Positions 1 to 64,000 of a stretch of DNA of 64,000 nucleotides are shown here, in pieces. Numbering within the stretch: position 1 is the stretch's first letter; each line of letters opens with the position of its first letter. Origin of the DNA: Eledone cirrhosa. Its lineage: Eukaryota. The stretch is from positions 15,810,001-15,874,000 of the forward strand of contig OZ024766.1 in the NCBI GenBank assembly GCA_964016885.1, in the 5' to 3' direction. Under the pieces are notes generated by a model that made no database searches, had not been told where the DNA came from, and was given only the letters and a program-made list of their open reading frames with translations. A program made the translations under genes and the position numbers.

Positions 1-751
1 CCAATGTCAGTTGTCATACAGGTGTCCATGGCTGTCTTATTTAACTGGCTACTCCAATGACTGCTCCTTCTAGTCTCTTCTTCCAATGTCAATTGTCATA
101 CAGGTGTCCATGGCCATCTTATTTAACTGGCTACTACAGTGACTACTCCTTCTAGACCCTTCTTCCAATGTCAGTTGTCATACAGGATTCCATGGCTGTC
201 TTATTTAACTGGCTACTCCAGTGACTGCTCCTTCTCGTCTCTTCTTCCAATGTCAGTTGTCATACGGGTGTCCATGGCTGTCTTATTTAACTGGCTACTC
301 CAGTGACTGCTCCTTCTAGTCTCTTCTTCCAATGTCAGTTGTCATACAGGTGTCCATGGCTGTCTTATTTAACTGGCTACTCCAATGACTGCTCCTTCTA
401 GTCTCTTCTTCCAATGTCAATTGTCATACAGGTGTCCATGGCCATCTTATTTCACTGGCTACTACAGTGACTACTCCTTCTAGACCCTTCTTCCAATGTC
501 AGTTGTCATACAGGATTCCATGGCTGTCTTATTTAACTGGCTACTCCAGTGACTGCTCCTTCTCGTCTCTTCTTCCAATGTCAGTTGTCATACGGGTGTC
601 CATGGCTGTCTTATTTAACTGGCTACTACAGTGACTGCTCCTTCTAGTCCCTTCTTCCAATGTCAGTTGTCATACAGGAGTCCATGGCTGTCTTATTTAA
701 CTGGCTACTCCAGTGACTGCCCCTTCTTGTCTCTTCTTCCAATGTCAATTG
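1..751. repeat. 82-bp minisatellite array, unit 1 (at least 9 copies, truncated by window start)
   Basis: Monomer ccaatgtcagttgtcatacaggtgtccatggctgtcttatttaactggctactccagtgactgctccttctagtctcttctt recurs every 82 nt; the variant tggccatctt at 111 and 439 gives a 328-bp (4-mer) sub-period. Confidence 0.97.
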
Positions 752-1162
752 CCATGCAGGAGTTGATGTTCTTTAAATGCTTCTTGATATGTGCTGCACT
801 CTTCCTCCAAATCACCTGAGATCCTCAAATGACGTTGGTCCTTGAACAATAAGCAGAAGTGGCTGTAAATAAAAACTCTCTCTGTTGTTGGGGTGGTCAT
901 TGTAAACATGCCCAATAGCATCACTTGCCTTGACTTCATCACCTTCCACTAAATGACCCTGCTTCCTTTGATTCCAAGTCTTACAATTGGTCCAGGTGTA
1001 GTATTTTGGGATGTCAGCATATAGGAGGGATCGAAGAAATTCTTTATTCTGGCAGTGTTTCAAAAAAGCAGTTAGAGTAGTGTCAGGTGGTGCTGGTGTC
1101 AACTGATGAGAAGTGGTTTCAGTGAAGTACACACTCTGTCCATTTTCTATATGTATAGAGAT
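752..1162 (-). mobile_element. Helitron Rep/helicase relic (linker between Rep and Pif1-like helicase), unit 1
   Basis: ORF 812..1177(-) contains HIENGQSVYF...TTLTAFLKHCQ...LLYADIPKYYTW...DAIGHVYNDHPNNRESFYLQPLLLIVQGPTSFEDLR, matching the Helitron pattern HLENGQRVYF...TTLTAFF...LLY.EVP.YYTW...IGRVYTVHP...E.FYLRLLL..V.GPTSFEDLR. Stops and frameshifts follow. Confidence 0.88.
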
Positions 1163-1164
1163 AA

Positions 1165-1586
1165 GGATGAAAAGCAAAGTTAATCTCTCAGAGGTTAGCT
1201 TTGCCTTTCATCCCTACGGGGTCGATAAAATAAAGTACCAGTAATACACTGGGGTAATTGCTGGCCTTGTGCCTAAAGTAGAAACAATTTTTACGGGGTC
1301 GATAAAATAAAGTACCAGTAATACACTGGAGTAATTGCTGGCCTTGTGGCTGAAGTAGAAACAGTTATTATGGGGTTGATAAAATAAAGTACCAGTAATT
1401 CACTGGGGTTATTTGCTGGCCTTGTGCCTAAAGTAGAAACAGTTATTACGGGGTTGACAAAATAAACTACCAGTAATACACTGATTTATTTACTGGCCTT
1501 GTGCCCAAAGTAGAAACAGTTATTACCTGGCTGATAAAATATAGTACCAGTAATTACTGGCCTTGTGTTAAAAGTAGAAACAATTA
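1165..1586 (+). repeat. Tandemised SINE 3' portion (77-78 bp, 5 copies) preceded by a short inverted SINE piece
   Basis: ggggtcgataaaataaagtaccagtaatacactggggtaattgctggccttgtgcctaaagtagaaacaatt repeats; it is the 3' half of the SINE at 3184-3362. Paralogues: 10488-11063 (7 copies), 21169-21526 (4), 36616-36818 (2), 44888-45166 (3), 55389-55746 (4). Confidence 0.85.
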
Positions 1587-2205: not shown

Positions 2206-2236
2206 TGACAAAGATTTACTTAATGTCTATATTAAT

Positions 2237-4571: not shown

Positions 4572-6437
4572 ATGGAAAATAAATTGAGTGAAAAGAATAT
4601 TAAATGTGAAACAATGACTAAAGATATGGCTATTACAGAAGAGATGTCAAAGGATAGAGGAGAGAAGCCATATCACTGTGATGTCTGTGGTAAATCATTC
4701 TCTGTTAGTAGTAAATTAGCTAGTCACAAACGTATACATACAGTAGAGAAGCCATATCACTGTGATATCTGTGGTAAATCATTCTTTGTTAATGGTAATT
4801 TAACAAGCCACAAACGTACACATACAGGAGAGAAGCCATACCACTGTGATATCTGTGGTAAATCATTCTCTGAAAGTGGTAACTTAACTAGACACAAACG
4901 TATACATACAGTAGAGAAGCCATATCACTGTGATATCTGTGGTAAATCATTCTTTGTTAATGGTAATTTAACAAGCCACAAACGTACACATACAGGAGAG
5001 AAGCCATATCACTGTGATATCTGTGGTAAATCATTCTTTGTTAATGGTAATTTAACTAGCCACATGCGTATACATACAGGTGAGAAGCCATATCACTGTG
5101 ATATCTGTGGTAAATCATTCTTTGTTAATAGTAAATTAACTAGACACAAACGTACACATACAGGAGAGAAGCCATATCACTGTGATATCTGTGGTAAATC
5201 ATTCTCTGGAAGTAGTAATTTAACTAGCCACGTGCGTATACATATAGGTGACAAACCATATCACTGTGATATCTGTGGTAAATCATTCTCTCTAAGTAGT
5301 ATATTAACTTGTCACATCCGTACCCATACAGGTGATAAGCCATATCACTGTGATGTCTGTGGTAAATCATTCTCTCGAAGTGGTACCTTAACTAGCCACA
5401 AACGTACCCATACAGGAGACAAACCATATCACTGTGATATCTGTGGTAAATCATTCTCTCGAAGTAGTCATTTAACTACACACAAACATATACATACAGG
5501 AGAGAAGCCATATCACTGTGATATCTGTGGTAAATCATTCTCTTTTAGTAGTAATTTAACTTCTCACATACGTACTCATACAGGAGACAAGCCTTATCAC
5601 TGTGATATCTGTGGTAAATCATTCTCTGAAAGTGGTAACTTAACTAGTCACAAAAGTATACATACAGGAGAGAAGCCATATAACTGTGATATCTGTGGTA
5701 AATCATTCTCTAAAAGTAGTATATTAACTAACCACATGCTTATACATATAGGTGAGAAACCATATCGCTGTGATATCTGTGGTCAATCATTCTCTCTAAG
5801 TAGTATATTAACTTGTCACATCCGTACCCATACAGGTGACAAGCCATATCACTGTGATATCTGTGGTAAATCATTCTCTGAAAGTGGTAACTTAACTAGA
5901 CACAGACGTATACATACAGGAGAGAGGCCATATCACTGTGATATCTGTGGTAAATCATTCTCTTTTAGTAGTAACATAAATTCTCACATACGTACTCATA
6001 CAGGAGAGAAGCCTTATCACTGTGATATCTGTGGTAAATCATTCTTTAATAATTTTAGTTTAACTAGACACGAACGTACCCATTCAGGAGAGAAGCCATA
6101 TCACTGTGATATCTGTGGTAAATCATTCTTTGTTAATAGTAATTTAACTAGACACAAAAGTATACATACAGGAGAGAAGCCATATCACTGTCATATCTGT
6201 GGTAAATCATTCTCTCGAAGAAGTTACTTAACTGAGCACTTACGTACCCATACAGGTGAGAAGCGATATCGCTGTGATATCTGTGGTAAATCGTTCTCTC
6301 AAAGTAGTCCCTTAACTCAACACTTACGTATCCATACAGGTGAGAAGCCACATCACTGTGATATCTGTGGTGGATCATTCTCTCAATTAAGTAGTTTAAC
6401 TAGACACAAATATACCCATACAGGTAAGAAACCATAA
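4572..6437 (+). CDS. Tandem C2H2 zinc-finger protein, 21 fingers (ZNF-1)
   Basis: 621-aa ORF: 33-aa leader plus 21 x 28-aa repeats YxCxxCGKSFxxxxxLxxHxxxHTGEKP. Confidence 0.95.
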   Translation: MENKLSEKNIKCETMTKDMAITEEMSKDRGEKPYHCDVCGKSFSVSSKLASHKRIHTVEKPYHCDICGKSFFVNGNLTSHKRTHTGEKPYHCDICGKSFSESGNLTRHKRIHTVEKPYHCDICGKSFFVNGNLTSHKRTHTGEKPYHCDICGKSFFVNGNLTSHMRIHTGEKPYHCDICGKSFFVNSKLTRHKRTHTGEKPYHCDICGKSFSGSSNLTSHVRIHIGDKPYHCDICGKSFSLSSILTCHIRTHTGDKPYHCDVCGKSFSRSGTLTSHKRTHTGDKPYHCDICGKSFSRSSHLTTHKHIHTGEKPYHCDICGKSFSFSSNLTSHIRTHTGDKPYHCDICGKSFSESGNLTSHKSIHTGEKPYNCDICGKSFSKSSILTNHMLIHIGEKPYRCDICGQSFSLSSILTCHIRTHTGDKPYHCDICGKSFSESGNLTRHRRIHTGERPYHCDICGKSFSFSSNINSHIRTHTGEKPYHCDICGKSFFNNFSLTRHERTHSGEKPYHCDICGKSFFVNSNLTRHKSIHTGEKPYHCHICGKSFSRRSYLTEHLRTHTGEKRYRCDICGKSFSQSSPLTQHLRIHTGEKPHHCDICGGSFSQLSSLTRHKYTHTGKKP

Positions 6438-8033: not shown

Positions 8034-8949
8034 ATATATATATATAAATACGGCCCCTTAATTGTAGAGCTAACTCTGTTGAAAGGACGTGACTGCTGTT
8101 TCTAGTTGTCAATAACCCTATTCACGCAACTGGGACGAAGCTGGTATGATGTGTGTATTTTTAGTAGATACAGCACGTGTTACTGGTCAGTCGCTGATTT
8201 GAACTTGATGCGTAAACACAGATGGTTGGACTTCTTCCTTGTTGAGAATCCAAGATCTGGCTACTGTCGTTTACCAATCGATTAATTGGTGAAATATATT
8301 TCTTTAATGGAATATATACAAGGAAGATTAATCATTTTCTAAGGTATCTATTTTTGAAGTTCTAGTTAAATTTATTTAGTTACCTACCTAGCTATGTCTG
8401 CTTACACACTTTTACAAATTATCCCCTGTGATTGTTTCATATGTTTATTTATATGTCAATCAATTTCTAGTTGATATATATATATATATATATATATACG
8501 TGGAAAAGTAAAATATAGCAGAACAGACCGTTAAAAGATGTTTATTTAAAATAGCACCTATGTAATTTTCACCTGGATGGGCTTCTCAAGGGTATAAATA
8601 ACTAAAAAGTGTTCTTTACATGGCCCAGAATGTGTTTTTAGAGATTAGTTCACGTCAGAGTTCATTCTTTGCAAAAAAGCGTGTTTTGATGTTGCAGTAG
8701 GTCAAGGGAGGTAACTCTAGCTGGTGTTAGGGCAGTCTTTCCCAGAAAATGTTTTTCTCTGTTAAAAGATATGGTTACAACCCTACCATTGTCGATACGC
8801 ACAGGGTCAGGTATGCAACGTTTGTTTGCTGCACCTGCCCGCCTGGGTCATATGAAGCCATGTCTGGGATGCATGGTTAGTTTCCGGATTTTTTTTGCAG
8901 CGCCTGCTAATGAGCGAGACACGGTCACCCGAACTAACTTGCTTCTAAA

Positions 8950-9282: not shown

Positions 9283-9420
9283 TCATCATTCATCATCATT
9301 TCATTTCACGTCCGCTTTTTCCCTGCTTGCAAGGGTGGGACGGGAACTGATTCTGGCTTGATTTCTAAAGATGGATGCCCTTCCTAATGCCAACCTCATT
9401 TACAGTGAGTGCTGGGTGCT
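9283..9420 (-). mobile_element. SINE 3' portion with RTE-like (GAT)n tail, abutting the Helitron relic
   Basis: Reverse complement matches the 3' half of the SINE at 17777-18062. Paralogues: about 18885-19024, 29125-29262, 43595-43734, 52532-52670, 63502-63640. Confidence 0.8.
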
Positions 9421-10486
9421 GTCATGTTGAATGTTTTTCATGATGTTGTGGTAGGCATATTTCTGGTCATCCACCAGTCAAGGTTTATTTTCATCCACAA
9501 ACTTACGCAACACTTCAATATCATGGTTTGTCTCCTGAAAAACTGATTGTATTACCTCAATTTCTTCTGGCTCTGGCATCCTGCATTGCTATTCATTGCT
9601 GGAATTCAATGGGACAGGTTGCACAGAGGTTGATTGTAAATCCTGGAGGTAGATTCCACATAAATATTGCTATAACATCTTTGGGCTAGGTGTAGATAGT
9701 CGTCTGACATATTGTTTTTGTACTCCTGCCAGGGTAGATGAGATTTATTCCAGATGCTGTGAGTATCGTAGCAAACAACTGTCTTATTTAACTGACTGCT
9801 CCTTCTAGTCCCTTCTTCCAATGTCAGTTGTCATACAGGTGTCCATGGCTGTCTTATTTAACTGGCTACTCCAGTGACTGCTCCTTCTAGTCCCTTCTTC
9901 CAATGTCAGTTGTCATACAGGTGTCCATGGCTGTCTTATTTAATTGGCCACTCCAGTGACTGCTCCTTCTAGTCTCTTCTTCCAATGTCAGTTGTCATAC
10001 AGGAGTCCATGGCTGTCTTATTTAACTGGCTACTCCAGTGACTGCCCCTTCTTGTCTCTTCTTCCAATGTCGATTGCCATGCAGGAGTCGATGTTCTTTA
10101 GATGCTTCTTGGTATGTGCTGCTCTTCCACCAAATCACCTGAGATCCTCAAATGACGTTGGTCCTTGAACAATAAGCAGATGTGACTGTAAATAAAAACT
10201 CTCTCTGTTGTTGGGGTGGTCATTGTAAACATGCCCAATAGCATCACTTTCCTTGACTTCATCACCTTCCACTAAATGACCCTGCTTCCTTTGATTCCAA
10301 GTCTTACAATTGGTCCATGTGTAGTATTTTGGGATGTCAGCATATAGGAGGGATCGAAGAAATTCTTTATTCTGGCAGTGTTTCAAAAAAGCAGTTAGAG
10401 TAGTGTCAGGTGGTGCTGGTGTCAACTGATGAGCAGTGGTTTCAGTGAAGTACACACTCTGTCCATTTTCTATATGTATAGAGATA
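9421..10486 (-). mobile_element. Helitron Rep/helicase relic, unit 2 (spans the minisatellite)
   Basis: GPTSFEDLR segment, then the repeat, then LFATILTA...WQEYKNNMSDDYLH...IYNQ.L...GMPEPEE...ETNHDIEVLRKFVDENKP*LVDDQKYAYHNIMKNI, ending just before the expected Pif1 Walker A motif. Confidence 0.88.
9779..10076. repeat. 82-bp minisatellite array, unit 2 (about 4 copies)
   Basis: Same monomer; the first copy has a 12-bp deletion. Confidence 0.95.
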
Positions 10487-11247
10487 AGGATGAAAAGCAA
10501 AGTTAATCCCTCAGAGGTTAGCTTTGCCTTTCATCCCTACGGGGCGGATAAAATAAAGTACCAGTAATGTACTGGGGTATTTCCTAGCCTTGTGCCTAAA
10601 TTAGAAACAATTATTACGGGATCGATAAAATAAAGTACCAGTCATACACTGAGGTAATTGCTGGCCTTGTGCCTAAAGTAGAAACAATTATTACGGGATC
10701 GATAAAATAAAGTACCAGTAGTACACTGGGGTAATTGCTGGCCTTGAGGCTGAAGTAGAAACAGTTATTACGGGGTTGATAAAATAAAGTACCAGTAATT
10801 CACTGGTGCTATTTGCTGGCCTTGTGCCTAAAGTAGAAACAGTTATTACGGGGTTGACAAAATAAACTACCAGTAATACACTGGGGTATTGCCGGCCTTG
10901 TGGCTAAAGTAGAAACAATTATTACGGGGTTGATAAAATAAAGTACCAGTAATTCACTGGTGTTATTTGCTGGCCTTGTGCCTAAAGTAGAAACAGTTAT
11001 TACCTGGCTGATAAAATATAGTACCAGTAATTACTGGCCTTGTGTTAAAAGTAGAAACAATTATCACATTTCTTTTTAATAAATCACATCACTATAGAAT
11101 TAAATACGACTGGAAATGTGTGTGAAGGTATTAAATTATGTCAGGGACTTTTAACGTTTGACACCGTACGAGAGTTGAAATATACGCAACGAGACCGAGT
11201 ACCTGCTGCCTTCATTATAACTTTAATTAATCTGATTATATCTTGTG

Positions 11248-11278
<31 letters not shown>

Positions 11279-12676
11279 AGTTTAATACCCCGACATCTGT
11301 CTTACACTGTCATATCTATTCTTACTTTACAATTGTGTCTACTAAGAGTTCCATTACAATCTGTAGTAGTAAAACTACTATTTCACCAGAACATCTGCTA
11401 TCAGTCATTTATAGACAATATATATATTTGAGACCACATATCAACCTAATATATATATATTTCCTATCAAATCTGTAGCTAAAGACATAAAGTCAGCCTC
11501 ACTACTTCATTCTGACAAGATATCAATTTATGACTAAAGATGAAGAAGATACACCAACGTTAATGTCGTGAAATAAAGCTGATAACATTGAAACTTCTAA
11601 TTTGATAACAAAGAGATTATTTCTTTGGTTGTTTAGTAACAACTAACAACACAATACATTGATTATATGTTAAGGAGGTAAGTTGACAAAGATTTACTTA
11701 ATGTCTATATTAATGTGTGTAAATAATATAATTATTTGAACCTTACAACGATCCAGTAATTAACCAGATTCCACTGTTACATGTGATATAAAATATATTG
11801 TTATCATGACTGTCTTTATTATTTAAATTACCTCCGTCTATTTAATTATCTTGTTCACTCCCTTACATTATAAAATATAGTTTATATTTAGCTCTACCTT
11901 GTTATTGCTTTAAGTAAATTAAAGATATATTTATTATTTAAATTACCTCCGTCTATTTAATTATGTGGTTCACTACCGTACATTATAAAATATAGTTTAT
12001 ATTTAGCTGTACCTTGTTGTTGCTTTAAGTAAATTAATATTTTGTCTATTTTAGTCTAAATCTCTTACAATTTAATTAACTTCATCTACTTATGGTTGAA
12101 CATTACTTTATTGTGGGTTTCATTTCATTATAATTATGTCTGAGTTAGCCAGCCAAGTAGGGGTTGAGTATCTGTATTTCAGGGAACTGCTTTGATGGTG
12201 AAGGGACATCTGTTGGTGTGGGATCTCGGTGGCTGTACATAATAAGGTTCTAATACTCTAAAGAGCTAGCTGAATAACCGTCTGATACATGTCTTGTATA
12301 GAGGATCATAAAGCCATGTATAGAAGAGCAGTCAGCAATGTCAGGATTAACATTCATTATAGTGAAGTGGCAGTATCGGTAGAGAGTCGGACACCATGCT
12401 TTGAGGCACAGAGTTACGTCCCTTTATGATCTGAGTTCAAATCCCGCCGAGGTTAACTTTGCCTTACATCCATACGGGGTTGATAAAATAAAGTACCAGT
12501 AATGTACTGGATAATTGCTGGCCTTGTGTTTAATATAGAAACAATTATAGTGAATAATTTGGAGTGTAGTGTGGTATCCACCAGGGCTCTGTTGTTAGCC
12601 CTCACTTAGTTATTATCGTCCTGCAGCCTATAACAGAGATGTTTAAGACTGGCTGCCCATGGTAACTCTTGTATGC

Positions 12677-13230
12677 ACAGCAGGACCTGAAGAATGCGGT
12701 CATGTGCATTTTCAAGGTCTATAAAACGATAATATATACCTCTTAGCAATACTCCCACGATTTCTCAAAGACGTGCCACAGTGTGAATATTTGGTGGGTT
12801 ATGTTGCACCCAGGGAGAAAACAGCACTGTCCATCAGCTAGCTTGGACTCGCTACATCACTTTGCCAGAAACTTTGCATATACTTTACCAGGGAGTCTTA
12901 ACAAGGTGATCCCTCTCTATTTGGAACAATCTCTCGTGTGTCCCTTTTTATAAATTGGGATTATCACTCCCGATTGCCTTTGCTTGAGTGCCATTTCAGA
13001 GACCCAGGCCATCTGACACACATGAGTCGGTCACATTTGAGCTCTTTAATTGCTCTTCTGACCTCAGCCTCCGAGAGATTAGTCACCGCTATCAGATTCA
13101 CCTCATGTACATCCGAAGATGCTGTTGTGATCGGGTTTGGGAGATCAGCAAAGTATTCTCTCCACCTCATGAGGATCCATCTCTCTGAAGAGAAAAGAAC
13201 CCCAGATACACTCATGGTTGCAGGTGTGGA
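12677..13230 (-). mobile_element. RTE-clade LINE fragment, unit 2
   Basis: ORF 12964..13215(-) RWREYFADLPNP..EAEVRRAIKELK; paralogue of 3491-4040. Confidence 0.8.
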
Positions 13231-13764
13231 GAAAGATTTCTTGTAACTAATTAAAAACTAAAATAATTTGATTTTTCAATAAAAAGTTTCCAGGGTTTAT
13301 AGATGTAAAATTTCCACTGTTAAATCTATCTCTGCTTCTTAAGTATTCTCTATTATTTCATACTGTTTCTTTTTCATTTCAGAATATCAGATGACATTAG
13401 GATAAATTATTATCTTCAATCTTGGATACATCACCTCTATTTATCATCATTTGAAGATTAAAACTTTTTAAACAGAACTTATATAACACTGTTTATATAA
13501 ATCTATCAGAATTACTGTGATATATTTCCTCAGAACTGAGTTTAAAGACAAAATTCCTTTTCTTCACTGTGTGGTATATATATATGAGAGATATATTTTG
13601 TATTTTAACTCAGCTTCAATGACAAAGAAGTTTGCATCATCTTCAGGTATTAACTGAGATCATAATTGAGGGAAATATAACAGAAGAAATATTTTTTAGG
13701 AATATAATATAAAAAATATTAAAGAATAACATCTGTAAATTCTGCCAAGGGTAGAAGAATTATT

Positions 13765-15714
13765 ATGGAAAATAAATTGAGTGAAACGAAGATTAAATGT
13801 GAAACAATGTCTAAAGATATGGCTATTACAGAAGAGATGTCAAAGGATAGAGGAGAGAAGCCATATCACTGTGATGTTTGTGGTAAATCATTCTCTGAAA
13901 GTAGTAAATTAACTAGTCACAAACGTATACATACAGTAGAGAAGCCATATCACTGTGATATCTGTGGTAAATCATTCTTTGTTAATGGTAATTTAACAAG
14001 CCACAAACGTACACATACAGTAGAGAAACCATATCACTGTGATGTCTGTGGTAAATCATTCCTTGATAATAGTAAATTAACTAGCCACATGCGTATACAT
14101 AGAGGTGAGAAACCATATCACTGTGATATCTGTGGTAAATCATTCTCTGAAAGTGGTCACTTAACTAGCCACAAACGTATACATACAGGAGAGATGCCAT
14201 ATCACTGTGATATCTGTGGTAAATCATATTCTCAGAGTAATGCCTTAACAAGCCACAAACGTATACATACAGGAGACAAGCCATATCACTGTGATATCTG
14301 TGGTCAATCATTCTCTCGAAGTGGTACCTTAACTAGCCACAAACGTATACATACAGGAGAGAAGCCATACCACTGTGATATCTGTGGTAAATCATTCTAT
14401 GATAGTAGTACCTTAACTAGCCACAAACGTATACATACAGGAGAGAAGCCATATCACTGTGATATCTGTGGTAAATCATTCTTTGTTAATGGTAATTTAA
14501 ATAGCCACATGCGTATACATACAGGAGAGAAGCCATATCACTGTGATATCTGTGGTAAATCATTCTTTGTTAATGGTAATTTAAATAGCCACATGCGTAT
14601 ACATACAGGAGAGAAGCCATATCACTGTGATATCTGTGGTAAATCATTCTCTGTAAGTGGTAACTTAACTAGCCACAAACGTATACATACAGGAGAGATG
14701 CCATATCACTGTGATATCTGTGGTAAATCATTCTCTGTAAGTGGTAACTTAACTAGCCACAAACGTATACATACAGGAGAGATGCCATATCACTGTGATA
14801 TCTGTGGTAAATCATATTCTCGGAGTAATGCCTTAACAAGCCACAAACGTATACATACAGGAGACAAGCCATATCACTGTGATATCTGTGGTCAATCATT
14901 CTCTCGAAGTGGTACCTTAACTAGCCACAAACGTATACATACAGGAGAGAAGCCATACCACTGTGATATCTGTGGTAAATCATTCTTTGTTAATGGTAAT
15001 TTAAATAGCCACATGCGTATACATACAGGTGAGAAGCCATATCACTGTGATATCTGTGGTAAATCATATTCTCACAGTAATGCCTTAACTAGCCACAAAC
15101 GTATCCATACAGGAGACAAGCCATATCGCTGTGATATCTGTGGTAAATCATTCTCTCGAAGAAGTTACTTAACTGAGCACTTACGTATCCATACAGGAGA
15201 CAAGCCATATCACTGTGATATCTGTGGTCAATCATTCTCTCGAAGTGGTACCTTAACTAGCCACAAACGTATACATACAGGAGAGAAGCCATACCACTGT
15301 GATATCTGTGGTAAATCATTCTATGATAGTAGTACCTTAACTAGCCACAAACGTATACATACAGGAGAGAAGCCATATCACTGTGATATCTGTGGTAAAT
15401 CATTCTTTGAAAATAGTAAATTAACTAGTCACAAACGTACACATACGGGAGAGAAGCCATATCACTGTGATATCTGTGGTAAATCATTCTCTGAAAGTAG
15501 TACCTTAACTAGCCACAAACGTATCCATACAGGAGAGAAGCCATATCGCTGTGATATCTGTGGTAAATCATTCTCTCAAAGTAGTCCCTTAACTCAACAC
15601 TTACGTATCCATACAGGTGAGAAGCCACATCACTGTGATATCTGTGGTAAATCATTCTCTCAATTAAGTAATTTAACTAAACACAAAAATACCCATACAG
15701 GTAAGAAACCATAA
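13765..15714 (+). CDS. Tandem C2H2 zinc-finger protein, 22 fingers (ZNF-2)
   Basis: 649-aa ORF: 33-aa leader plus 22 x 28 aa. Confidence 0.95.
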
Positions 15715-18062: not shown

Positions 18063-19024
18063 ATATATATATATATACACGTGGAAAAGTAAAATATAGC
18101 AGAACAGACCGTTAAAAGATGTTTATTTAAAATAGCAACTATGTACATTTCACCTGGATGGGCTTCTCAAGGGTATAAATAACTAAAAAGTGTTCCTTAC
18201 ATGGCCCAGAATGTGTTTTTAGAGATAAGTTCACGTCAGAGTTCATTCTACGCGAAAAAGCGTGTTTTGATTTTGCAGTAGGTCAAGGGAGGTAATTCTA
18301 GCTGGTGTTAGGGCAGTCTTTCCCGGAAAATTTTTTTATCTGTTAAAAGATATGGTTACAACCCTACCATTGTCGATACGCACAGGGTCAGGTATGCAAC
18401 GTTTGTTTGCTGCACCTGCCCGCCTGGGTCACTTGAAGCCATGTCTGGGATACATGGTTAGTTTCATGATTTTTTTTGCAGCACCTGCTATATATATATA
18501 TATGAGCGAGACACGGTCACCCGACCTAACTTGCTTCTAAATACGACAAACCCGTCCAACCCATGCTAGCATGGAAGATAGATAATAATCGATGATGATG
18601 ATATCTAGGGATTGTAACATTACCACAACAGAAGTCTGACAAGCTTTTGATTCCAGAGTCAGGCTAGATCAATACAGATCAAACCTTGAGCTGATCGATA
18701 GCAAAACGTGCTTCACTGCTCAATAAATGTAATGAAGACATGACAAATTGTCCTCTCGCTCCCTCTCTCTATATATAGAGAAAAGGTGAAGTTAGAAATA
18801 GCACGGAAAATATATTTTAGGGCCTGTTTTATGTTATATATCTTTTGATTCGTTAAAGTGACCCTATTGAAAAAATGGGAGAGACATCATCATTCATCAT
18901 CATTTCATTTCACGTCCACATTTTCCCTGCTTGCAAGGGTGGTACGGGAACTGATTGTGGCTTGATTTCTAAAGATGTATGCCCTTCCTAACGCCAACCT
19001 CATTTACAGTGAGTGCTGGGTGCT

Positions 19025-43338: not shown

Positions 43339-43378
<40 letters not shown>

Positions 43379-48091: not shown

Positions 48092-49369
48092 ATGGAAAAT
48101 AAATTGAGGGAAAAGAAGATTAAATGTGAAACAATGTCTAAAGATATGGCTATTACAGAAGAGATGTCAAAGGATAGAGGAGAGAAGCCATATCACTGTG
48201 ATGTTTGTGGTAAATCATTCTCTCGAAGTAGTAATTTAACTAGCCACATGCGTATACATACAGGTGAGAAGCCATATCACTGTGATATCTGTGGTAAATC
48301 ATTCTCTGAAAGTGGTAACTTAACTAGCCACATGCGTATACATACAGGTGAGAAGCCATATCACTGTGATATCTGTGGTAAATCATTCTTTCTTAATAGT
48401 AAATTAACTAGCCACAAACGTACACATACAGGAGAGAAGCCATATCACTGTGATATCTGTGGTAAATCATTCTCTCTAAGTAGTATATTAACTTGTCACA
48501 TCCGTACCCATACAGGTGACAAGCAATATCACTGTGATATCTGTGGTAAATCATTCTCTGAAAGTGGTAACTTAACTAGACACAAGCGTATACATACAGG
48601 AGAGAAGCCATATCACTGTGATATCTGTGGTAAATCATTCTCTTTTAGTAGTAATATAAATTCTCACATACGTACTCATACAGGAGAGAAGCCATATCAC
48701 TGTGATATCTGTGGTAAATCATTCTTTAATAATATTAGTTTAACTAGACACGAACGTACCCATTCAGGAGAGAAGCCATATCACTGTGATATCTGTGGTA
48801 AATCATTCTTTGTTAATAGTAATTTAACTAGACACAAAAGTATACATACAGGAGAGAAGCCATATCACTGTGATATCTGTGGTAAATCATTCTCTGAAAG
48901 TGGTACCTTAACTAGCCACAAACGTATACATACAGGAGACAAGCCATATCACTGTGATATCTGTGGTAAATCATTCTCTCAAAGAAGTTACTTAACTGAG
49001 CACTTACGTATCCATACAGGTGAGAAGCCATATCACTGTGATATCTGTAGTAAATCATTCTCTGATAGTGGTACCTTAACTAGCCACATACGTATACATA
49101 CAGGAGAGAAGCCATATCACTGTGATATCTGTAGTAAATCATTCTCTGAAAGTGGTACCTTAACTAGACACAAACGTATCCATACAGGAGAGAAGCCACA
49201 TCACTGTGATATCTGTGGTAAATCATTCTCTGAAAGTGGTACCTTAACTAGACACAAACGTATCCATACAGGAGAGAAGCCATACCACTGTGATATCTGT
49301 GGTATATCATTCTCTCAATTAAGTAGTTTAACTAAACACAAATATACCCATACAGGTAAGAAACCATAA
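48092..49369 (+). CDS. Tandem C2H2 zinc-finger protein, 14 fingers (ZNF-5)
   Basis: 425-aa ORF: 33-aa leader plus 14 x 28 aa. Confidence 0.95.
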
Positions 49370-51708: not shown

Positions 51709-52670
51709 ATATATATATATATACACGTGGAAAAGTAAAATATAGCAGAACAGACCGTTAAAAGATGTTTATTTAAAATAGCAACTATGTACATTTCACC
51801 TGGATGGGCTTCTCAAGGGTATAAATAACTAAAAAGTGTTCCTTACATGGCCCAGAATGTGTTTTTAGAGATAAGTTCACGTCAGAGTTCATTCTACGCG
51901 AAAAAGCGTGTTTTGATTTTGCAGTAGGTCAAGGGAGGTAACTCTAGCTGGTGTGAGGGCAGTCTTTCCCGGAAAATTTTTTTATCTGTTAAAAGATATG
52001 GTTACAACCCTACCATTGTCGATACGCACAGGGTCAGGTATGCAACGTTTGTTTGCTGCACCTGCCCGCCTGGGTCACTTGAAGCCATGTCTGGGATACA
52101 TGGTTAGTTTCATGATTTTTTTTGCAGCACCTGCTATATATATATATATGAGCGAGACACGGTCACCCGACCTAACTTGCTTCTACATACGACAAACCCG
52201 TCCAACCCATGCTAGCATGGAAGATAGATAATAATCGATGATGATGATATCTAGGGATTGTAACATTACCACAACAGAAGTCTGACAAGCTTTTGATTCC
52301 AGAGTCAGGCTAGATCAATACAGATCAAACCTTGAGCTGATCGATAGCAAAACGTGCTTCACTGCTCAATAAATGTAATGAAGACATGACAAATTGTCCT
52401 CTCGCACCCTCTCTCTATATATAGAGAAAAGGTGAAGTTAGAAATAGCACGGAAAATATATTTTAGGGCCTGTTTTATGTTATATATCTTTTGATTCGTT
52501 AAAGTGACCCTATTGAAAAAATGGGAGAGACATCATCATTCATCATCATTTCATTTAACGTCCACATTTTCCCTGCTTGCAAGGGTGGTACGGGAACTGA
52601 TTGTGGCTTGATTTCTAAAGATGGATGCCCTTCCTAACGCCAACCTCATTTACAGTGAGTGCTGGGTGCT

Positions 52671-55386
52671 GTCATGTTGAATGTTTTTCATGTTGTGGTA
52701 GGCATATTTCTGGCCATCCACCAGTCAAGGTTTATTTTCATCCACAAACTTACGCAACACTTCAATATCATGGTTTGTCTCCTGAAAAAGTGATTGTATT
52801 AACTCAATTTCTTCTGGCTCTGGCATCCTACATTGCTATTCATTGTTGGAATTCAATGGGACAGGTTGCAAAGAGGTTGATTGTAAATCTTGGAGGTAGA
52901 TTCCACATAAATATTGCTATAACGTCTTTGGGCTAGGTGTAGATAGTCGTCTGACATATTGTATTTGTGCTCCTGCCAGGGTAGATGAGATTTATTCCAC
53001 ATGCTGTGAGTATAGTAGCAAACAACTGTCTTATTTAACTGGCTACTCCAGTGACTGCTCCTTCTAGTCTCTCCTTCCAATATCACTTGTCATACAGGTG
53101 TCCATGGCTGTCTTATTTAACTGGCTACTCCAGTGACTGCTCCTTCTAGTCTCTTCTTCCAATGTCAGTTGTCATACAGGTGTCCATGGCTGTCTTATTT
53201 AACTGGCTACTCCAGTGTCTGCTCCTTCTAGTCCCTTCTTCCAATGTCAGTTGTCATACAGGTGTCCATGGCTGTCTTATTTAACTGGCTACTCCAGTGA
53301 CTGCTCCTTCTAGTCCCTTCTTCCAATGTCAGTTGTCATACAGGTGTCCATGGCTGTCTTGTTTAACTGGCTACTCCAGTGACTGCTCCTTCTAGTCTCT
53401 TCTTCCAATGTCAGTTGTCATACAGGTGTCCATGGCTGTCTTATTTAACTGGCTACTCCAGTGTCTGCTCCTTCTAGTCCCTTCTTCCAATGTCAGTTGT
53501 CATACAGGTGTCCATGGCTGTCTTATTTAACTGGCTACTCCAGTGACTGCTCCTTCTAGTCCCTTCTTCCAATGTCAGTTGTCATACAGGTGTCCATGGC
53601 TGTCTTGTTTAACTGGCTACTCCAGTGACTGCTCCTTCTAGTCTCTTCTTCCAATGTCAGTTGTCATACAGGTGTCCATGGCTGTCTTATTTAACTGGCT
53701 ACTCCAGTGTCTGCTCCTTCTAGTCCCTTCTTCCAATGTCAGTTGTCATACAGGTGTCCATGGCTGTCTTATTTAACTGGCTACTCCAGTGACTGCTCCT
53801 TCTAGTCTCTTCTTCCAATGTCAATTGTCATACAGGAGTCCATGACTGTTTTATTTAACTGGCTACTCCAGTGACTGCTCCTTCTAGTCTCTTCTTCCAA
53901 TGTCAGTTGTCATACAGGTGTCCATGGCTGTCTTGTTTAACTGGCTACTCCAGTGACTGCTCCTTCTAGTCTCTTCTTCCAATGTCAGTTGTCATACAGG
54001 TGTCCATGGCTGTCTTATTTAACTGGCTACTCCAGTGACTGCTCCTTCTAGTCTCTTCTTCCAATGTCAGTTGTCATACAGGTGTCCATGGCTGTCTTAT
54101 TTAACTGGCTACTCCAATGACTGCTCCTTCTAGTCTCTTCTTCCAATGTCAATTGTCATACAGGTGTCCATGGCCATCTTATTTAACTGGCTACTACAGT
54201 GACTACTCCTTCTAGACCCTTCTTCCAATGTCAGTTGTCATACAGGATTCCATGGCTGTCTTATTTAACTGGCTACTCCAGTGACTGCTCCTTCTCGTCT
54301 CTTCTTCCAATGTCAGTTGTCATACGGGTGTCCATGGCTGTCTTATTTAACTGGCTACTCCAGTGACTGCTCCTTCTAGTCTCTTCTTCCAATGTCAGTT
54401 GTCATACAGGTGTCCATGGCTGTCTTATTTAACTGGCTACTCCAGTGACTGCTCCTTCTAGTCTCTTCTTCCAATGTCAGTTGTCATACAGGTGTCCATG
54501 GCTGTCTTATTTAACTGGCTACTCCAATGACTGCTCCTTCTAGTCTCTTCTTCCAATGTCAATTGTCATACAGGTGTCCATGGCCATCTTATTTCACTGG
54601 CTACTACAGTGACTACTCCTTCTAGACCCTTCTTCCAATGTCAGTTGTCATACAGGATTCCATGGCTGTCTTATTTAACTGGCTACTCCAGTGACTGCTC
54701 CTTCTCGTCTCTTCTTCCAATGTCAGTTGTCATACGGGTGTCCATGGCTGTCTTATTTAACTGGCTACTACAGTGACTGCTCCTTCTAGTCCCTTCTTCC
54801 AATGTCAGTTGTCATACAGGATTCCATGGCTGTCTTATTTAACTGGCTACTCCAGTGACTGCTCCTTCTCGTCTCTTCTTCCAATGTCAGTTGTCATACG
54901 GGTGTCCATGGCTGTCTTATTTAACTGGCTACTACAGTGACTGCCCCTTCTTGTCTCTTCTTCCAATGTCAATTGCCATGCAGGAGTTGATGTTCTTTAA
55001 ATGCTTCTTGATATGTGCTGCACTCTTCCTCCAAATCACCTGAGATCCTCAAATGACGTTGGTCCTTGAACAATAAGCAGAAGTGGCTGTAAATAAAAAC
55101 TCTCTCTGTTGTTGGGGTGGTCATTGTAAACATGCCCAATAGCATCACTTGCCTTGATTTCATCACCTTCCACTAAATGACCCTGCTTCCTTTGATTCCA
55201 AGTCTTACAATTGGTCCAGGTGTAGTATTTTGGGATGTCAGCATATAGGAGGGATCGAAGAAATTCTTTATTCTGGCAGTGTTTCAAAAAAGCAGTTAGA
55301 GTAGTGTCAGGTGGTGCTGGTGTCAACTGATGAGAAGTGGTTTCAGTGAAGTACACACTCTGTCCATTTTCTATATGTATAGAGAT
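52671..55386 (-). mobile_element. Helitron Rep/helicase relic, unit 6
   Basis: ORFs 52853..53086(-) and 55036..55401(-). Confidence 0.87.
53026..54975. repeat. 82-bp minisatellite array, unit 6 (about 24 copies)
   Basis: Same monomer over about 1.95 kb; 54061 onward matches window position 1 onward. Confidence 0.97.
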
Positions 55387-57579
55387 AAGGATGAAAAGCA
55401 AAGTTAATCTCTCAGAGGTTAGCTTTGCCTTTCATCCCTACGGGGTCGATAAAATAAAGTACCAGTAATACACTGGGGTAATTGCTGGCCTTGTGCCTAA
55501 AGTAGAAACAATGTTTACGGGGTCGATAAAATAAAGTACCAGTAATGCACTGGAGTAATTGCTGGCCTTGTGCCTAAAGTAGAAACAGTTATTACGGGGT
55601 TGACAAAATAAACTACCAGTAATACACTGGCGTATTTACTGGCCTTGTGCCCAAAGTAGAAACAGTTATTACCTGGCTGATAAAATATAGTACCAGTAAT
55701 ACACTAGGGTAATTACTGGCCTTGTGTTAAAAGTAGAAACAATTATCACATTTCTTTTTAATAAATCACATCACTATAGAATTAAATACGACTGGAAATG
55801 TGTGTGAAGGTACTAAATTATGTCAGGGACTTGTCACGTTTGACACCGTACGAGAGTCGAAACATTCGCTAAGACACCGAGTACCTGCTGTCTTCGTTAT
55901 AACTTTAATTAATCTAATTATATCTTGTGTAACAATTATATATATATATACACACACAATTTTAATTCCCCGACATCAGTCTTACACTGTCATATCTATT
56001 CTTACTTTACAATTGTGTCTACTAAGAGTTCCATTACAATCTGTAGTAGTAAAACTACTATTTCACCAGAACATCTGCTATCAGTCATTTATAGACAATA
56101 TATATATTTGAGACCACGTATCAACCTAATATATATATATTTCCTATCAAATCTGTAGCTAAAGACATAGAGTCAGCCTCACTACTTCATTCTGACAAGA
56201 TATCAATTTATGACTAAAGATGAAGAAGATACACCAACGTTAATGTCGTGAAATAAAGCTGATAACATTGAAACTTCTAATTTGATAACAAAGAGATTAT
56301 TTCTTTGGTTGTTTAGTAACAACTAACAACACAATACATTGATTATATGTTAAGGAGGTAAGTTGACAAAGATTTACTTAATGTCTATATTAATGTGTGT
56401 AAATAATATAATTATTTTAACCCTACAACGATCTAGTAATTAACCAGATTCCACTGTTACATGTGATATAAAATATATTGTTATCATGACTCTTTATTAT
56501 TTAAATTACCTCCGTCTCTTTAATTATCTTGTTCACTACCTTACATTATAAAATATAGTTTATATTTAGCGGTACCTTGTTGTTGCTTTAAGTAAATTAA
56601 AGATATATTTATTATTTAAATTACCTCCGTCTATTTAATTATCTTGTTCACTACCATACATTATAAAATATAGTTTATATTTAGCTGTACCTTGTCATTG
56701 CTTTAAGTAAATTAAAGATATTTTTGTTATCTAAATTACCGCCGTCTATTTAATTATCTTGTTCACTACCTTACATTATAAAATATAGTTTATATGTATC
56801 TGTACCTTGTCATTGCTTTAAGTAAATTAAAGATATATTTATTATTTAAATTACCTCCGTCTATTTAATTATGTGGTTCACTACCTTACATTATAAAATA
56901 TAGTTTATATTTAGCTGTACCTTGTTATTGCTTTAAGTAAATTAATATTTTGTCTGTTTTAGTCTAAATCTCTTACAATTTAATTAACTTCATCTACTTA
57001 TGGTTGAACATTACTTTATTGTGGGTTTCATTTAATTGTAATTATGTCTGAGTTAGCCAGCCAAGTAGGGGTTTAGTATCTGTATTTCAGGGAACTGGTT
57101 TGATGGTGAAGGGACATCTGTTGGTGTGGGATCTCGGTGGCTGTACATAATAAGGTTCTAATACTCTAAAGAGCTAGCTGAATAACCGTCTGATACATGT
57201 CTTGTATAGAGGATCATAAAGCCATGTATAGAAGAGCAGTCAGCAATGTCAGGATTTACATTCATAGTGAAGTGGCAGTATCGGTAGGGAGTCGGACACC
57301 ATGGTTTGAGGCACAGAGTTACGTCCCTTTATGATCTGAGTTCAAATCCAGCTGAGGTTAACTTTGCCTTACATCCATACGGGGTCGATAAAATAAAGTA
57401 CCAGTAATGTACTGGGTAATTGCTGGCCTTGTGTTTAAAATAGAAACAATTATAGTGAAGAATTTGGAGTGTAGTCTGGTGTCCACCAGGGCTCTGTTCT
57501 TAGCCCTCACTTAGTTATTATCGTCCTGCAGCCTATAACAGATGTTTAAGACTGGCTGCCCAGGGGAACTCCTGTATGC

Positions 57580-58777: not shown

Positions 58778-60644
58778 ATGGAAAATAAATTGAGTGAAAA
58801 GAAGATTAAATGTGAAACAATGACTAAAGATATGGCTATTACAGAAGAGATGTCAAAGGATAGAGGAGAGAAGCCATATCACTGTGATGTCTGTGGTAAA
58901 TCATTCTCTGTTAGTAGTAAATTAACTAGTCACAAACGTATACATACAGTAGAGAAGCCATATCACTGTGATATCTGTGGTAAATCATTCTTTGTTAATG
59001 GTAATTTAACAAGCCACAAACGTACACATACAGGAGAGAAGCCATACCACTGTGATATCTGTGGTAAATCATTCTCTGAAAGTGGTAACTTAACTAGACA
59101 CAAACGTATACATACAGTAGAGAAGCCATATCACTGTGATATCTGTGGTAAATCATTCTTTGTTAATGGTAATTTAACAAGCCACAAACGTACACATACA
59201 GGAGAGAAGCCATATCACTGTGATATCTGTGGTAAATCATTCTTTGTTAATGGTAATTTAACTAGCCACATGCGTATACATACAGGTGAGAAGCCATATC
59301 ACTGTGATATCTGTGGTAAATCATTCTTTGTTAATAGTAAATTAACTAGACACAAACGTACACATACAGGAGAGAAGCCATATCACTGTGATATCTGTGG
59401 TAAATCATTCTCTGGAAGTAGTAATTTAACTAGCCACGTGCGTATACATATAGGTGACAAACCATATCACTGTGATATCTGTGGTAAATCATTCTCTCTA
59501 AGTAGTATATTAACTTGTCACATCCGTACCCATACAGGTGATAAGCCATATCACTGTGATGTCTGTGGTAAATCATTCTCTCGAAGTGGTACCTTAACTA
59601 GCCACAAACGTACCCATACAGGAGACAAACCATATCACTGTGATATCTGTGGTAAATCATTCTCTCGAAGTAGTCATTTAACTACACACAAACATATACA
59701 TACAGGAGAGAAGCCATATCACTGTGATATCTGTGGTAAATCATTCTCTTTTAGTAGTAATTTAACTTCTCACATACGTACTCATACAGGAGACAAGCCT
59801 TATCACTGTGATATCTGTGGTAAATCATTCTCTGAAAGTGGTAACTTAACTAGTCACAAAAGTATACATACAGGAGAGAAGCCATATAACTGTGATATCT
59901 GTGGTAAATCATTCTCTAAAAGTAGTATATTAACTAACCACATGCTTATACATATAGGTGAGAAACCATATCGCTGTGATATCTGTGGTCAATCATTCTC
60001 TCTAAGTAGTATATTAACTTGTCACATCCGTACCCATTACAGGTGACAAGCCATATCACTGTGATATCTGTGGTAAATCATTCTCTGAAAGTGGTAACTT
60101 AACTAGACACAGACGTATACATACAGGAGAGAGGCCATATCACTGTGATATCTGTGGTAAATCATTCTCTTTTAGTAGTAACATAAATTCTCACATACGT
60201 ACTCATACAGGAGAGAAGCCTTATCACTGTGATATCTGTGGTAAATCATTCTTTAATAATTTTAGTTTAACTAGACACGAACGTACCCATTCAGGAGAGA
60301 AGCCATATCACTGTGATATCTGTGGTAAATCATTCTTTGTTAATAGTAATTTAACTAGACACAAAAGTATACATACAGGAGAGAAGCCATATCACTGTCA
60401 TATCTGTGGTAAATCATTCTCTCGAAGAAGTTACTTAACTGAGCACTTACGTACCCATACAGGTGAGAAGCGATATCGCTGTGATATCTGTGGTAAATCG
60501 TTCTCTCAAAGTAGTCCCTTAACTCAACACTTACGTATCCATACAGGTGAGAAGCCACATCACTGTGATATCTGTGGTGAATCATTCTCTCAATTAAGTA
60601 GTTTAACTAGACACAAATATACCCATACAGGTAAGAAACCATAA
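58778..60644 (+). CDS. Tandem C2H2 zinc-finger gene, near-identical to ZNF-1, with a +1 frameshift after finger 14 (ZNF-6)
   Basis: ORF 58778..60046 (422 aa); acccataca became acccattaca at 60037-60038. Seven further fingers continue to the GKKP-TAA stop at 60644. Confidence 0.88.
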
Positions 60645-63640
60645 CAAAGTCATATCTCATTGTCTCAAAATTGTAAATTAATTAGACACAAATACATTCA
60701 TATGAGTGAGAAGTCATACCACTGTGATATTGCGGAGAAATTATTCTCTTGTATTGCTACATTAACTACATACTAACATAAATATATACTGGAGAAAAGC
60801 CATATTACTGTGATATCTGGGGGAAATTGTTATCTATAAAAGCTAGCTTAACTAGACACAAACATATACATACAGGAGAGAAACTATATCACTGTGATAT
60901 CTGTGGGAAATCATTCTCTGAAATAAGTCACTTCACTCGGCACTAACATTTAAAGAAAAGGAACCATATCGTTGTGATATCTGCAGTAAATCATTCTCTA
61001 AATGTTGTGGCTTCCCTACACACTAACATATACAGGAGAGGAACCATATCACTGTGATGTCTGTGATAAATCCTTCTCTAAATGTTGTGACTTTACTAGA
61101 CACTAACATATACAGGAGAGGAACCATATCACTGTGTTGTCTGTGGTAAATCATTTTCTAAATGTTGTGTTACCAACATAAGGTTACTTAATGGAACACA
61201 AACACGATCAGACAAGATAAAAACCATGTCACTCACCGAAAATAGTGCCACCAATGTTGCTAATGTTTTGAATAAAACTTGTTTGTTCTGAAATTATTCT
61301 CCTTTCATTTTATTTGTAGAAGTTGTAACCAAGACTTATGCTGACAAATCTGTATGGTACAGAATTTACAAACACTATATATATATATATATGTGTGCCA
61401 AAACATCTATGATCTCGGTTTACAGCTGATGAAGGGTTTCTTCTCTCCTTTCATCCATATTACCATCTTAAACTTTGTTTACAGTAACCACACAACTCCT
61501 TTCGTTTCTTATGATTTTATATATATATATAACAAAGGAGGTGTGGTAAAGAACCAGATGGACCATATACGCACCAGAGTACTCAATACTTAGGGTAGTA
61601 GAGCGGGTAATAGGAAAATGTTTAAACCCGACGGCAGAGCTCAATCCGTTTCGACGGCTATTTCTGGAAACAGTCCAGAAATAACCGTCGAAATGACTTT
61701 AGCTCTGCTGTCGGGGTTAAACATTTTCCTATATATATATATATATATATATATGTATGAGTGTATATGTCAGTGTGTAGAAAATTCTGTCCATGAAAAT
61801 GATTATCTTTATTTGTATATATGTATGTGTATGTTTATATGTGTTCTTATATACATGTGTGCACATCTTGATATATTTTCAGTGTCTGTTCTAGTTCTCA
61901 GAGTACAAATCCCACTGAGGTAAAGTTGCTTTGATATTTTGAGGCCAATAAATGAAATACCAGTGAAATACTGGGGTGGTTAATTCCTCTTCTTTGTCAT
62001 TGTCTGTTGTCTACTCTTGTCTTTCTCTGTATTTATATATATATACACAAAATTAAAATAAATTAAAATAAAATTAATCTAAATCAAATTATGGGTGTCA
62101 TGCCAGAAAGACATGTGACATATCACCCGTAAAATAAGCTCCATGGAGCTTATTTTACGGGTGATATGGCGCATGTCTTTCTGGAATGACACCCATAATT
62201 TGATATAGATTAATTTTATTTTAATTTATCTTAATTTTGGATATATATATATAAATACGGCCCCTTAATTGTAGAGATAACTCTGTTGAAAGGACGTGAC
62301 TGCTGTTTCTAGTTGTCAATAACCCTATTCACGCAACTGGGACGAAGCTGGTATGATGTGTGTATTTTTAGTAGATACAGCACGTGTTACTGGTCAGTCG
62401 CTGATTTGAACTTGATGCGTAAACACAGATGGTTGGACTTCTTCCTTGTTGAGAATCCAAGATCTGGCTACTGTCGTTTACCAATCGATTAATTGGTGAA
62501 ATATATTTCTTTAATGGAATATATACAAGGAAGATTAATCATTTTCTAAGGTATCTATTTTTGAAGTTCTAGTTAAATTTATTTAGTTACCTACCTAGCT
62601 ATGTCTGCTTACACACTTTTACAAATTATCCCCTGTGATTGTTTCATATGTTTATTTATATGTCAATCAATTTCTAGTTGATATATATATATATATATAT
62701 ATATACGTGGAAAAGTAAAATATAGCAGAACAGACCGTTAAAAGATGTTTATTTAAAATAGCACCTATGTAATTTTCACCTGGATGGGCTTCTCAAGGGT
62801 ATAAATAACTAAAAAGTGTTCTTTACATGGCCCAGAATGTGTTTTTAGAGATTAGTTCACGTCAGAGTTCATTCTTTGCAAAAAAGCGTGTTTTGATGTT
62901 GCAGTAGGTCAAGGGAGGTAACTCTAGCTGGTGTTAGGGCAGTCTTTCCCAGAAAATGTTTTTCTCTGTTAAAAGATATGGTTACAACCCTACCATTGTC
63001 GATACGCACAGGGTCAGGTATGCAACGTTTGTTTGCTGCACCTGCCCGCCTGGGTCATATGAAGCCATGTCTGGGATGCATGGTTAGTTTCCGGATTTTT
63101 TTTGCAGCGCCTGCTATATATATATATATATGAGCGAGACACAGTCACCCGACCTAACTTGCTTCTAAATACGACAAACCCGTCCAACCCATGCTAACAT
63201 GGAAGATAGACAATAATCGATGATGATGATATCTAGGGATTGTAACATTACCACAACAGAAGTCTGACAAGCTTTTAATTCCAGAGTCAGGCTAGATCAA
63301 TACAGATCAAACCTTGAGCTGATCGATAGCAAAACGTGCTTCACTGCTCAATAAATGTAATGAAGACATGACAAATTGTCCTCTCGCTATCTCTCTATAT
63401 ATAGAGAAAAGGTGAAGTTTGAAATAGCACGGAAAATATATTTTAGGGCCTGTTTTTCTGTTATATATCTTTTGATTCGTTAAAGTGACCCTATTGAAAA
63501 AATCATCATTCATCATCATTTCATTTCACGTCCGCTTTTTCCCTGCTTGCAAGGGTGGTACGGGAACTGATTGTGGCTTGATTTCTAAAGATGGATGCCC
63601 TTCCTAATGCCAACCTCATTTACAGTGAGTGCTGGGTGTT

Positions 63641-64000
63641 GTCATGTTGAATGTTTTTCAAGATGTTGTGGTAGGCATATTTCTGGTCATCCACCAGTCA
63701 AGGTTTATTTTCATCCACAAACTTACGCAACACTTCAATATCATGGTTTGTCTCCTGAAAAACTGATTGTATTACCTCAATTTCTTCTGGCTCTGGCATC
63801 CTGCATTGCTATTCATTGCTGGAATTCAATGGGACAGGTTGCACAGAGGTTGATTGTAAATCCTGGAGGTAGATTCCACATAAATATTGCTATAACATCT
63901 TTGGGCTAGGTGTAGATAGTCGTCTGACATATTGTTTTTGTACTCCTGCCAGGGTAGATGAGATTTATTCCAGATGCTGTGAGTATCGTAGCAAACAACT
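63641..64000 (-). mobile_element. Helitron relic of a seventh unit (truncated by window end)
   Basis: Matches 9421-9780; the window ends exactly where the minisatellite would begin. Confidence 0.85.

Follow-up and report, generated by a model that had tools for sequence, protein, structure and literature searches.

The window analysed here, 64,000 nucleotides of contig OZ024766.1 of Eledone cirrhosa, carries six C2H2 zinc-finger (ZNF) genes head to tail in a single orientation, each in a cassette with a relic of a Helitron transposon that contains a minisatellite of 82-bp units (82-mer). We interpret this array, with a probability of about 85%, as a young head-to-tail C2H2 cluster that grew by unequal crossover and gene conversion of an ancestral unit of ~8.5 kb, in which the dead Helitron and the other relics were likely passengers. 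An earlier reading made from the letters alone (hereafter the sequence-only reading) had described an amplifying cassette that generates new DNA-binding specificities, either by Helitron-related amplification or by unequal crossover promoted by its repeats, with the caveat that the relic might be only a passenger. That caveat fits all of the tests that we ran.

The ZNF genes are the following:

4572..6437, plus strand: ZNF gene 1, a leader of 33 amino acids (aa) and 21 C2H2 fingers, intact; degenerate fingers continue beyond the stop to ~6960
13765..15714, plus strand: ZNF gene 2, 22 fingers, intact, with internal finger duplications
24543..25742, plus strand: ZNF gene 3, 13 fingers, then a frameshift and a stop, with broken fingers downstream
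39612..41225, plus strand: ZNF gene 4, 17 canonical fingers and 1 degenerate finger, intact
48092..49369, plus strand: ZNF gene 5, intact, with 14 fingers, of which five are close to identical to fingers of gene 1 and keep their order; the 3' end is as in gene 2
58778..60644, plus strand: ZNF gene 6, a copy of gene 1 with 13 in-frame fingers and a 1-bp insertion at 60037

Their start codons at 4572, 13765, 24543, 39612, 48092, and 58778 give spacings of 9193, 10778, 15069, 8480, and 10686 bp, exactly those of the sequence-only reading. All six genes are present, but genes 3 and 6 are truncated, by a frameshift and by the 1-bp insertion, respectively. We refer to the stretches between the genes as blocks 0 to 6, of which blocks 0 and 6 are cut by the window edges. 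The order of modules was identical across all units, as had been claimed; in block 1 coordinates it runs from degenerate post-stop fingers through two palindromic elements (7403-7525 and 7822-8051), a conserved block (8140-8345), a retroposon tail (9290-9420), the minus-strand Helitron piece with the 82-mer (9418-10488), a 77-bp array, a 115-bp array, a short interspersed element (SINE), and long interspersed element (LINE)-like relics to a predicted splice acceptor at 13382 and the coding sequence. Pairwise divergence of the non-tandem modules between units was 0-8.2%. The differences in spacing had been ascribed mostly to tandem-repeat copy number, which held for most of the length, with the remainder due to a deletion, an insert, and a LINE piece. 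Relative to the shortest unit, net tandem change accounts for 152 of 713, 1439 of 2298, 5416 of 6589, and 1340 of 2206 bp, with the 82-mer as the chief tandem source, and the non-tandem changes are a 588-bp deletion common to blocks 3 and 4, an insert of ~290 bp carried by blocks 2 and 5, and, in block 3, a LINE piece of 1.2 kb.

The pairing of ZNF gene and Helitron, which was central to the sequence-only reading, is real but not specific to the Helitron. Besides the relic, every unit holds a tRNA-type SINE, the 77-bp array formed from its tail, LINE-like relics, and the two palindromic elements, and because these other transposon relics equally occur in every unit, the pairing is explained by one ancestral unit copied whole.

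The units themselves are recombinant mosaics with long near-identical tracts, in agreement with the unequal-crossover alternative offered earlier. Blocks 2 and 5, at an offset of 33.7 kb, are only ~0.5% apart over ~8 kb of non-82-mer sequence, and this near-identity, which takes in the 82-mer, starts at the final finger of genes 2 and 5 and holds as far as ~23770 and ~57985, respectively. A second pair, at an offset of 54.2 kb, diverges by ~0.4% along ~6.9 kb; one member runs from ~2934 in block 0 through gene 1 into block 1, the other from ~57023 in block 5 through gene 6 into block 6. The change of partner in block 5 thus falls within 57023-57985. The sole stretch in which block 0 parts from blocks 2 and 5 is 1289-2933, which lies between the 77-bp array and the 115-bp array. 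The pattern points to repeated unequal crossover and gene conversion as the probable source of the array. Private retroposon insertions were also seen at 2233-2410 in block 0 and at 17776-18061 and 51422-51707 in blocks 2 and 5, and can serve as markers for the order of duplication.

We then identified the relic by homology. Among 174 candidate proteins, 106 matched its open 5' part at E<=0.001, nearly all of them of RepHel type (best E 2e-30, 53% identity) and most of these carrying PF14214/PF05970, which confirmed the Helitron assignment of the sequence-only reading. The piece corresponds to ~290 codons of the linker that joins the Rep domain to the helicase domain: in a 1546-aa RepHel homologue (P0001) it spans residues ~823-1100, beginning ~55 residues past the Y2 motif and ending ~20 residues short of Walker A, so that HUH (625), Y2 (765), and Walker A (1123) all lie outside. 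The HUH/Y2 Rep domain and the Pif1 helicase motifs were not found in the window by tblastn with 28 homologues of at least 1300 aa, which gave no other match at E<0.01. Frameshifts and stops occur throughout the relic, whose copies are the following:

1..1165, minus strand: block 0, cut by the window start; 82-mer array 1-760 (9.3 copies, window-cut)
9418..10488, minus strand: block 1, RepHel linker with the 82-mer array 9793-10093 inside (3.7 copies)
19022..21169, minus strand: block 2, 82-mer array 19380-20764 (16.9 copies)
29262..36616, minus strand: block 3, 82-mer array 29623-36201 (80.8 copies); extra stop and frameshift in the 5' part
43732..44888, minus strand: block 4, 82-mer array 44083-44482 (4.9 copies)
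52668..55389, minus strand: block 5, 82-mer array 53026-54984 (23.9 copies)
63638..64000, minus strand: block 6, cut by the window end

Both edges of the relic adjoin retroposon pieces, and since these junctions are identical in all six copies, a single ancestral insertion accounts for them. The 5' part differs among the six copies by 2 synonymous and 12 non-synonymous changes, 1 stop, and 1 frameshift, which indicates neutral decay and no purifying selection; relic divergence in blocks 1-5 (2.2% and 3.9%) falls within the 1.0-6.5% of seven other non-coding pieces. A 131-codon frame in the relic was considered as a maintained open reading frame and rejected, because it lacks a Met, is interrupted in block 3, and bears no sign of purifying selection. 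At the upstream edge (10486-10537 and its copies), two SINE pieces lie back to back and form a short fold-back. Relic-like contigs 12-17% diverged were recovered from public runs X1 and X5, two of which (X1) continue into unlike sequence past the relic edge, and the runs of a second organism held a 206-bp piece of the relic with 5 differences. These observations are consistent with an older Helitron family with dispersed copies, one fragment of which became trapped in the unit. Retroposon insertions would have truncated this fragment before the unit was amplified.

A different account of the same piece is that the whole unit is a non-autonomous Helitron with a captured ZNF gene, copied head to tail by a rolling circle with RepHel supplied in trans. 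It would explain why a RepHel-derived piece stands in every unit and why all units have one orientation, and related Helitron copies do exist in runs of the same species. Truncated Helitron arrays are also known (PMC12628747, available text), and for a fungus it has been proposed that ToxB, a Helitron-like element, made tandem duplicates of a host gene (10.1101/2025.11.13.688278). Although ToxB resembles the present array in its tandem host-gene copies and proposed Helitron link, its units, as far as the available text describes them, have terminus-like motifs and stem-loops at their edges and no RepHel inside, whereas here RepHel sequence lies inside and no such edges were found. We searched for the canonical ends, 5'-TC and hairpin-CTRR, as given in the available text of PMC12001565 and 10.1101/2025.11.13.688278. 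A scan for perfect stems before CTRR gave 28 matches in the window, mostly one SINE-tail motif, and the strongest (10-bp stem) lay in the insert private to blocks 2 and 5. An excess of hairpin-CTRR over shuffles (7 against a mean of 2.0) was discarded as a terminus signal, being due to one SINE-tail motif repeated in the 77-mer. One unit has 230 CTRR sites on its two strands, and the 36 bases preceding each of them were folded. Of the 14 best folds, most belonged to the SINE tail or to the segment that two blocks have lost, and the only one of them present once in all six units was weak (-4.4 kcal/mol, a value reached by roughly 5% of random positions) with no TC after it. Seven CTRR-TC sites in one unit gave folds of -0.8 to -3.1 kcal/mol, none of them strong. 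For canonical ends within the window, therefore, no hairpin-CTRR end common to the units and no CTRR/5'-TC concatemer junction was found, in line with the earlier statement that no termini were seen.

The relic is bounded by retroposon pieces instead of Helitron ends, and the units are 0.2-8% apart and mosaic, unlike a single burst of identical copies. Rep, helicase, and canonical termini, by which a Helitron is recognized, were absent from the unit within the window, whereas the features of a tandem ZNF cluster, namely same-orientation paralogues, common flanks and transposon junctions, and mosaicism, were all present. We consider rolling-circle copying of the unit highly unlikely, and the proposal of Helitron-related amplification found no support from a relic that lacks catalytic motifs and termini and entered the unit once.

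The 82-mer was traced to the same coding sequence. A profile built from 58 homologue linkers matched one 82-mer copy after another, with the frame shifting, at columns ~181-230 (best independent E-value 4.3e-5), while collinear matches at columns 57-190 and 212-349 flank the 82-mer region. The shifting frames indicate that the 82-mer arose when a stretch of RepHel coding sequence was duplicated in tandem, which destroyed the frame; it is an example of a minisatellite born from the protein-coding sequence of a Helitron. There were 74 distinct variants among the 129 units counted, some of them common to blocks 0, 2, and 5, and the block 3 array (29623-36201) has ~20 units duplicated almost exactly within it, along with three shortened units. 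Metagenome scans gave no matches for the 82-mer core and none for the splice acceptor. Tandem repeats that arise within Helitrons are known, including the 166-bp arrays of Heli2Xen, DINE/HINE, and oyster satellites (PMC12001565, PMC12628747). The 82-mer resembles these in its birth within Helitron sequence and its variable copy number. According to the available text of the same papers, however, such satellites are located within non-autonomous elements or at the termini of elements, and transposition is believed to spread them, whereas the 82-mer derives from RepHel coding sequence in a fragment without termini and was multiplied with the host unit.

A dead relic could still matter if its minisatellite were the driver, either by promoting misalignment and crossover of units or by tuning the adjacent gene through copy number. 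The 82-mer is the most variable module (4-81 copies), the ~20-unit duplication in the longest array reflects recent exchange within that array, and the repeat lies ~1.5 kb upstream of the predicted exon, possibly within the first intron. The mosaic record argues otherwise. Blocks 2 and 5 are near-identical on either side of the array, kilobases of 92-99% homology are available in the unit even without the 82-mer, and the handful of readable breakpoints fall outside it: those that could be located, which are few, lie at the last fingers of genes 2 and 5, at ~23770, within 57023-57985, and at the edges of the 77- and 115-bp arrays, with none in the 82-mer. A driving role of the repeat is accordingly quite unlikely, and the suggestion of the sequence-only reading that repeats promoted the crossover is, for the 82-mer, unsupported wherever breakpoints can be read. 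A related idea, that the 82-mer was co-opted as a dial for each gene, with its 4-81 copies setting the expression or recombination rate of the unit and the fingers perhaps binding it, seems to us unlikely as well. In the history of the cluster that we prefer, slippage or unequal exchange would then have changed each type of array, those of 82, 77, and 115 bp as well as the 84-bp fingers, independently of the others.

We next examined the fingers. In a spanning tree of the 79 distinct fingers of genes 1-5, the ratio of non-synonymous to synonymous change (pN/pS) was 2.66 at the predicted contact positions -1, 2, 3, and 6 and 0.67 at the other non-structural positions. Counting each codon change once gave 2.07 against 0.63, and the four intact genes gave 2.31 against 0.70; these counts omit gene 6 entirely and the single degenerate finger in gene 4, and the invariance of Cys and His in the finger tables follows from the construction of the search pattern. 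Both counts point to diversifying selection on the contact residues. The notion of an amplifying cassette is borne out to the extent that the copies diverge at predicted DNA-binding residues (contact pN/pS ~2-2.7). There are 53 distinct fingerprints, 13 of which are common to different genes; identical fingers repeat inside genes, and runs of fingers are common to genes 1 and 5. Fast contact-residue change, gain and loss of fingers, and some pseudogenes, as expected of tandem C2H2 clusters, were all observed. Selection would favor new binding specificities, possibly against transposons as has been proposed for metazoan ZNFs, the binding itself being predicted.

Five to six decayed fingers follow each stop codon (6440-6960 and equivalent places), which indicates that shortening of the ancestral gene preceded amplification of the unit. 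No KRAB domain was present among the best 25 of 42 Pfam families, and only 33 residues precede the first finger in the predicted coding exon, upstream of which another coding exon may lie. This leader shows 8 non-synonymous and 0 synonymous changes among the six copies, so that no conserved accessory domain is evident. Protein homologue and atlas searches returned generic C2H2 matches, with two Octopus vulgaris proteins among 23 and neither of them the best, and an exact look-up matched none of five proteins in the collection. The style of the fingers and of the SINE likewise suggests an octopus as the likely source.

Several points weigh against the cluster as we read it. Over ~2.4 kb, gene 6 is 99.8% identical to gene 1, with 4 substitutions and a single T insertion of homopolymer type at 60037 in finger 14, and the flanks are ~0.5% apart, which is like heterozygosity; part of the array (gene 6 with its flanks, perhaps block 5) might then be an assembly artefact joining two haplotypes. 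We regard this as improbable, because there are two near-identical pairs at different offsets (33.7 and 54.2 kb) that meet inside block 5, and genes 1-5 differ greatly in finger number and order, so that at least five units are distinct. Gene 6 itself may be a young pseudogene, or the insertion at 60037 may be a read error. Only blocks 2 and 5 carry a tandem duplication of 117 bp where the predicted coding exon begins (24067-24300 and 58302-58535); there block 5 follows block 2 while its surroundings follow block 0, a history beyond one crossover. The tract at 1289-2933 has both of its ends close to the 77- and 115-bp arrays, so that short repeats may guide part of the exchange. The selection figures are approximate spanning-tree counts on recombining repeats rather than codon-model estimates. 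Finally, an element might wrap the whole array with its termini beyond the 64-kb window; a rolling-circle origin of the array with such outlying termini would be a less likely form of the co-option idea for the 82-mer.

The remaining features are the following:

8140..8345, plus strand: the most conserved non-coding block, with copies at 17422, 28540, 43006, 51068, and 62347 (mean pairwise divergence 1.0%)
9290..9420, minus strand: short retroposon-tail piece that bounds the downstream side of the relic
10538..11031, plus strand: 77-bp tandem array from the SINE 3' tail, 2-6.4 copies, one array per unit
11679..13382, plus strand: predicted intron, with invariant donor (11679) and acceptor (13382) in all six units and the coding exon next
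11815..12037, plus strand: 115-bp tandem array, 1.9-3.9 copies per unit
12368..12547, plus strand: 180-bp SINE-like element with an A/B-box-like head read by eye, 95.6-98.3% identical in the other five blocks that reach so far
12570..13230: two LINE reverse-transcriptase-like relics in opposite orientation, with one weak RVT_1 match (E 0.046); the second we take to be LINE-like from its motifs
26522..27731, plus strand: LINE 3' piece in block 3 only, behind the truncated gene 3, with a 292-codon frame that includes a PHD-like Cys-rich stretch (PF00628, E 1.2e-6)

Within the conserved block, 8168-8329 has one variable site in 162 bp (Poisson P ~2e-5, for a block chosen after the fact), and the block ends in an invariant possible splice donor. 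It is predicted to be a candidate promoter or first exon. With a first exon here, intron 1 would contain the relic in antisense orientation; failing that, the relic would stand upstream of the gene. No spliced joint was seen among the 15 of 2266 joints listed from runs X1, X5, X4, and X6. Summed depth at the exon start was 1775 in X4 and 1426 in X6 against 1-26 over the two unique bins of the relic, as might be seen if numerous related ZNF genes had no relic, and depth past the predicted donor falls in X5 and also in X4 and X6; depth gives no copy number, and neither pattern was counted as evidence. Assemblies of the public runs have many loose ends at the edges of the 180-bp SINE. The palindromic elements (7403-7525 and 7822-8051, with copies in every block) are TA-flanked, 85% and 94% self-complementary, and resemble miniature inverted-repeat transposable elements. 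Two Rfam matches, at a palindrome and a microsatellite of the window, were far below the gathering score and were rejected as chance, and ARAGORN found no genes in the window. In two other organisms (runs X4 and X6, compared over 7900-13900), pieces of the cassette flanks were found at 0-11% difference, and the unit is therefore likely older than their split from the species of the window.

The closest known system is, by analogy, a young mouse KRAB-ZNF cluster (Bruno et al., PMC11952569), in which transposons were multiplied as passengers of segmental duplication. As far as the available text goes, both share tandem segmental duplication, passenger transposons, divergent fingers, and recombination as the proposed driver. 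They differ in that the unit here holds one gene in 8-15 kb, with a coding sequence predicted as a single exon and only the 33-aa leader before the fingers, and in that the passengers are Helitron linker, SINE, LINE, and palindromic relics in place of endogenous retroviruses. With the C2H2 expansions of coleoids (PMC9068888, PMC12513265, PMC12988792), the array shares a large lineage-specific tandem expansion in a SINE-rich genome. The word Helitron does not occur in the available main text of these two genomic papers and review, and a literature search of incomplete coverage, with supplements outside it, found no report of a ZNF-Helitron pairing in octopus. The review describes breakpoints of rearranged blocks as unanalysed in coleoids, and the present window supplies a few at the scale of gene units. 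Like cyprinid FiNZ-ZNF and other metazoan tandem ZNFs (PMC10547256, available text), recent paralogues here show an excess of amino-acid change at base-contacting residues; unlike FiNZ-ZNF, no conserved accessory domain is evident.

The mechanism proposed here is a known one and not a new amplification system, and the array would matter much more if the 82-mer controlled expression or crossover or if Helitron ends flanked it. Should the 82-mer act as a dial, a dead transposon would run a diversity generator for cephalopod transcription factors. Taken as a cluster grown by crossover and gene conversion, the array would represent a very young and clean case, with readable breakpoints, of new finger combinations arising through unit duplication, finger shuffling, and selection on contact residues.

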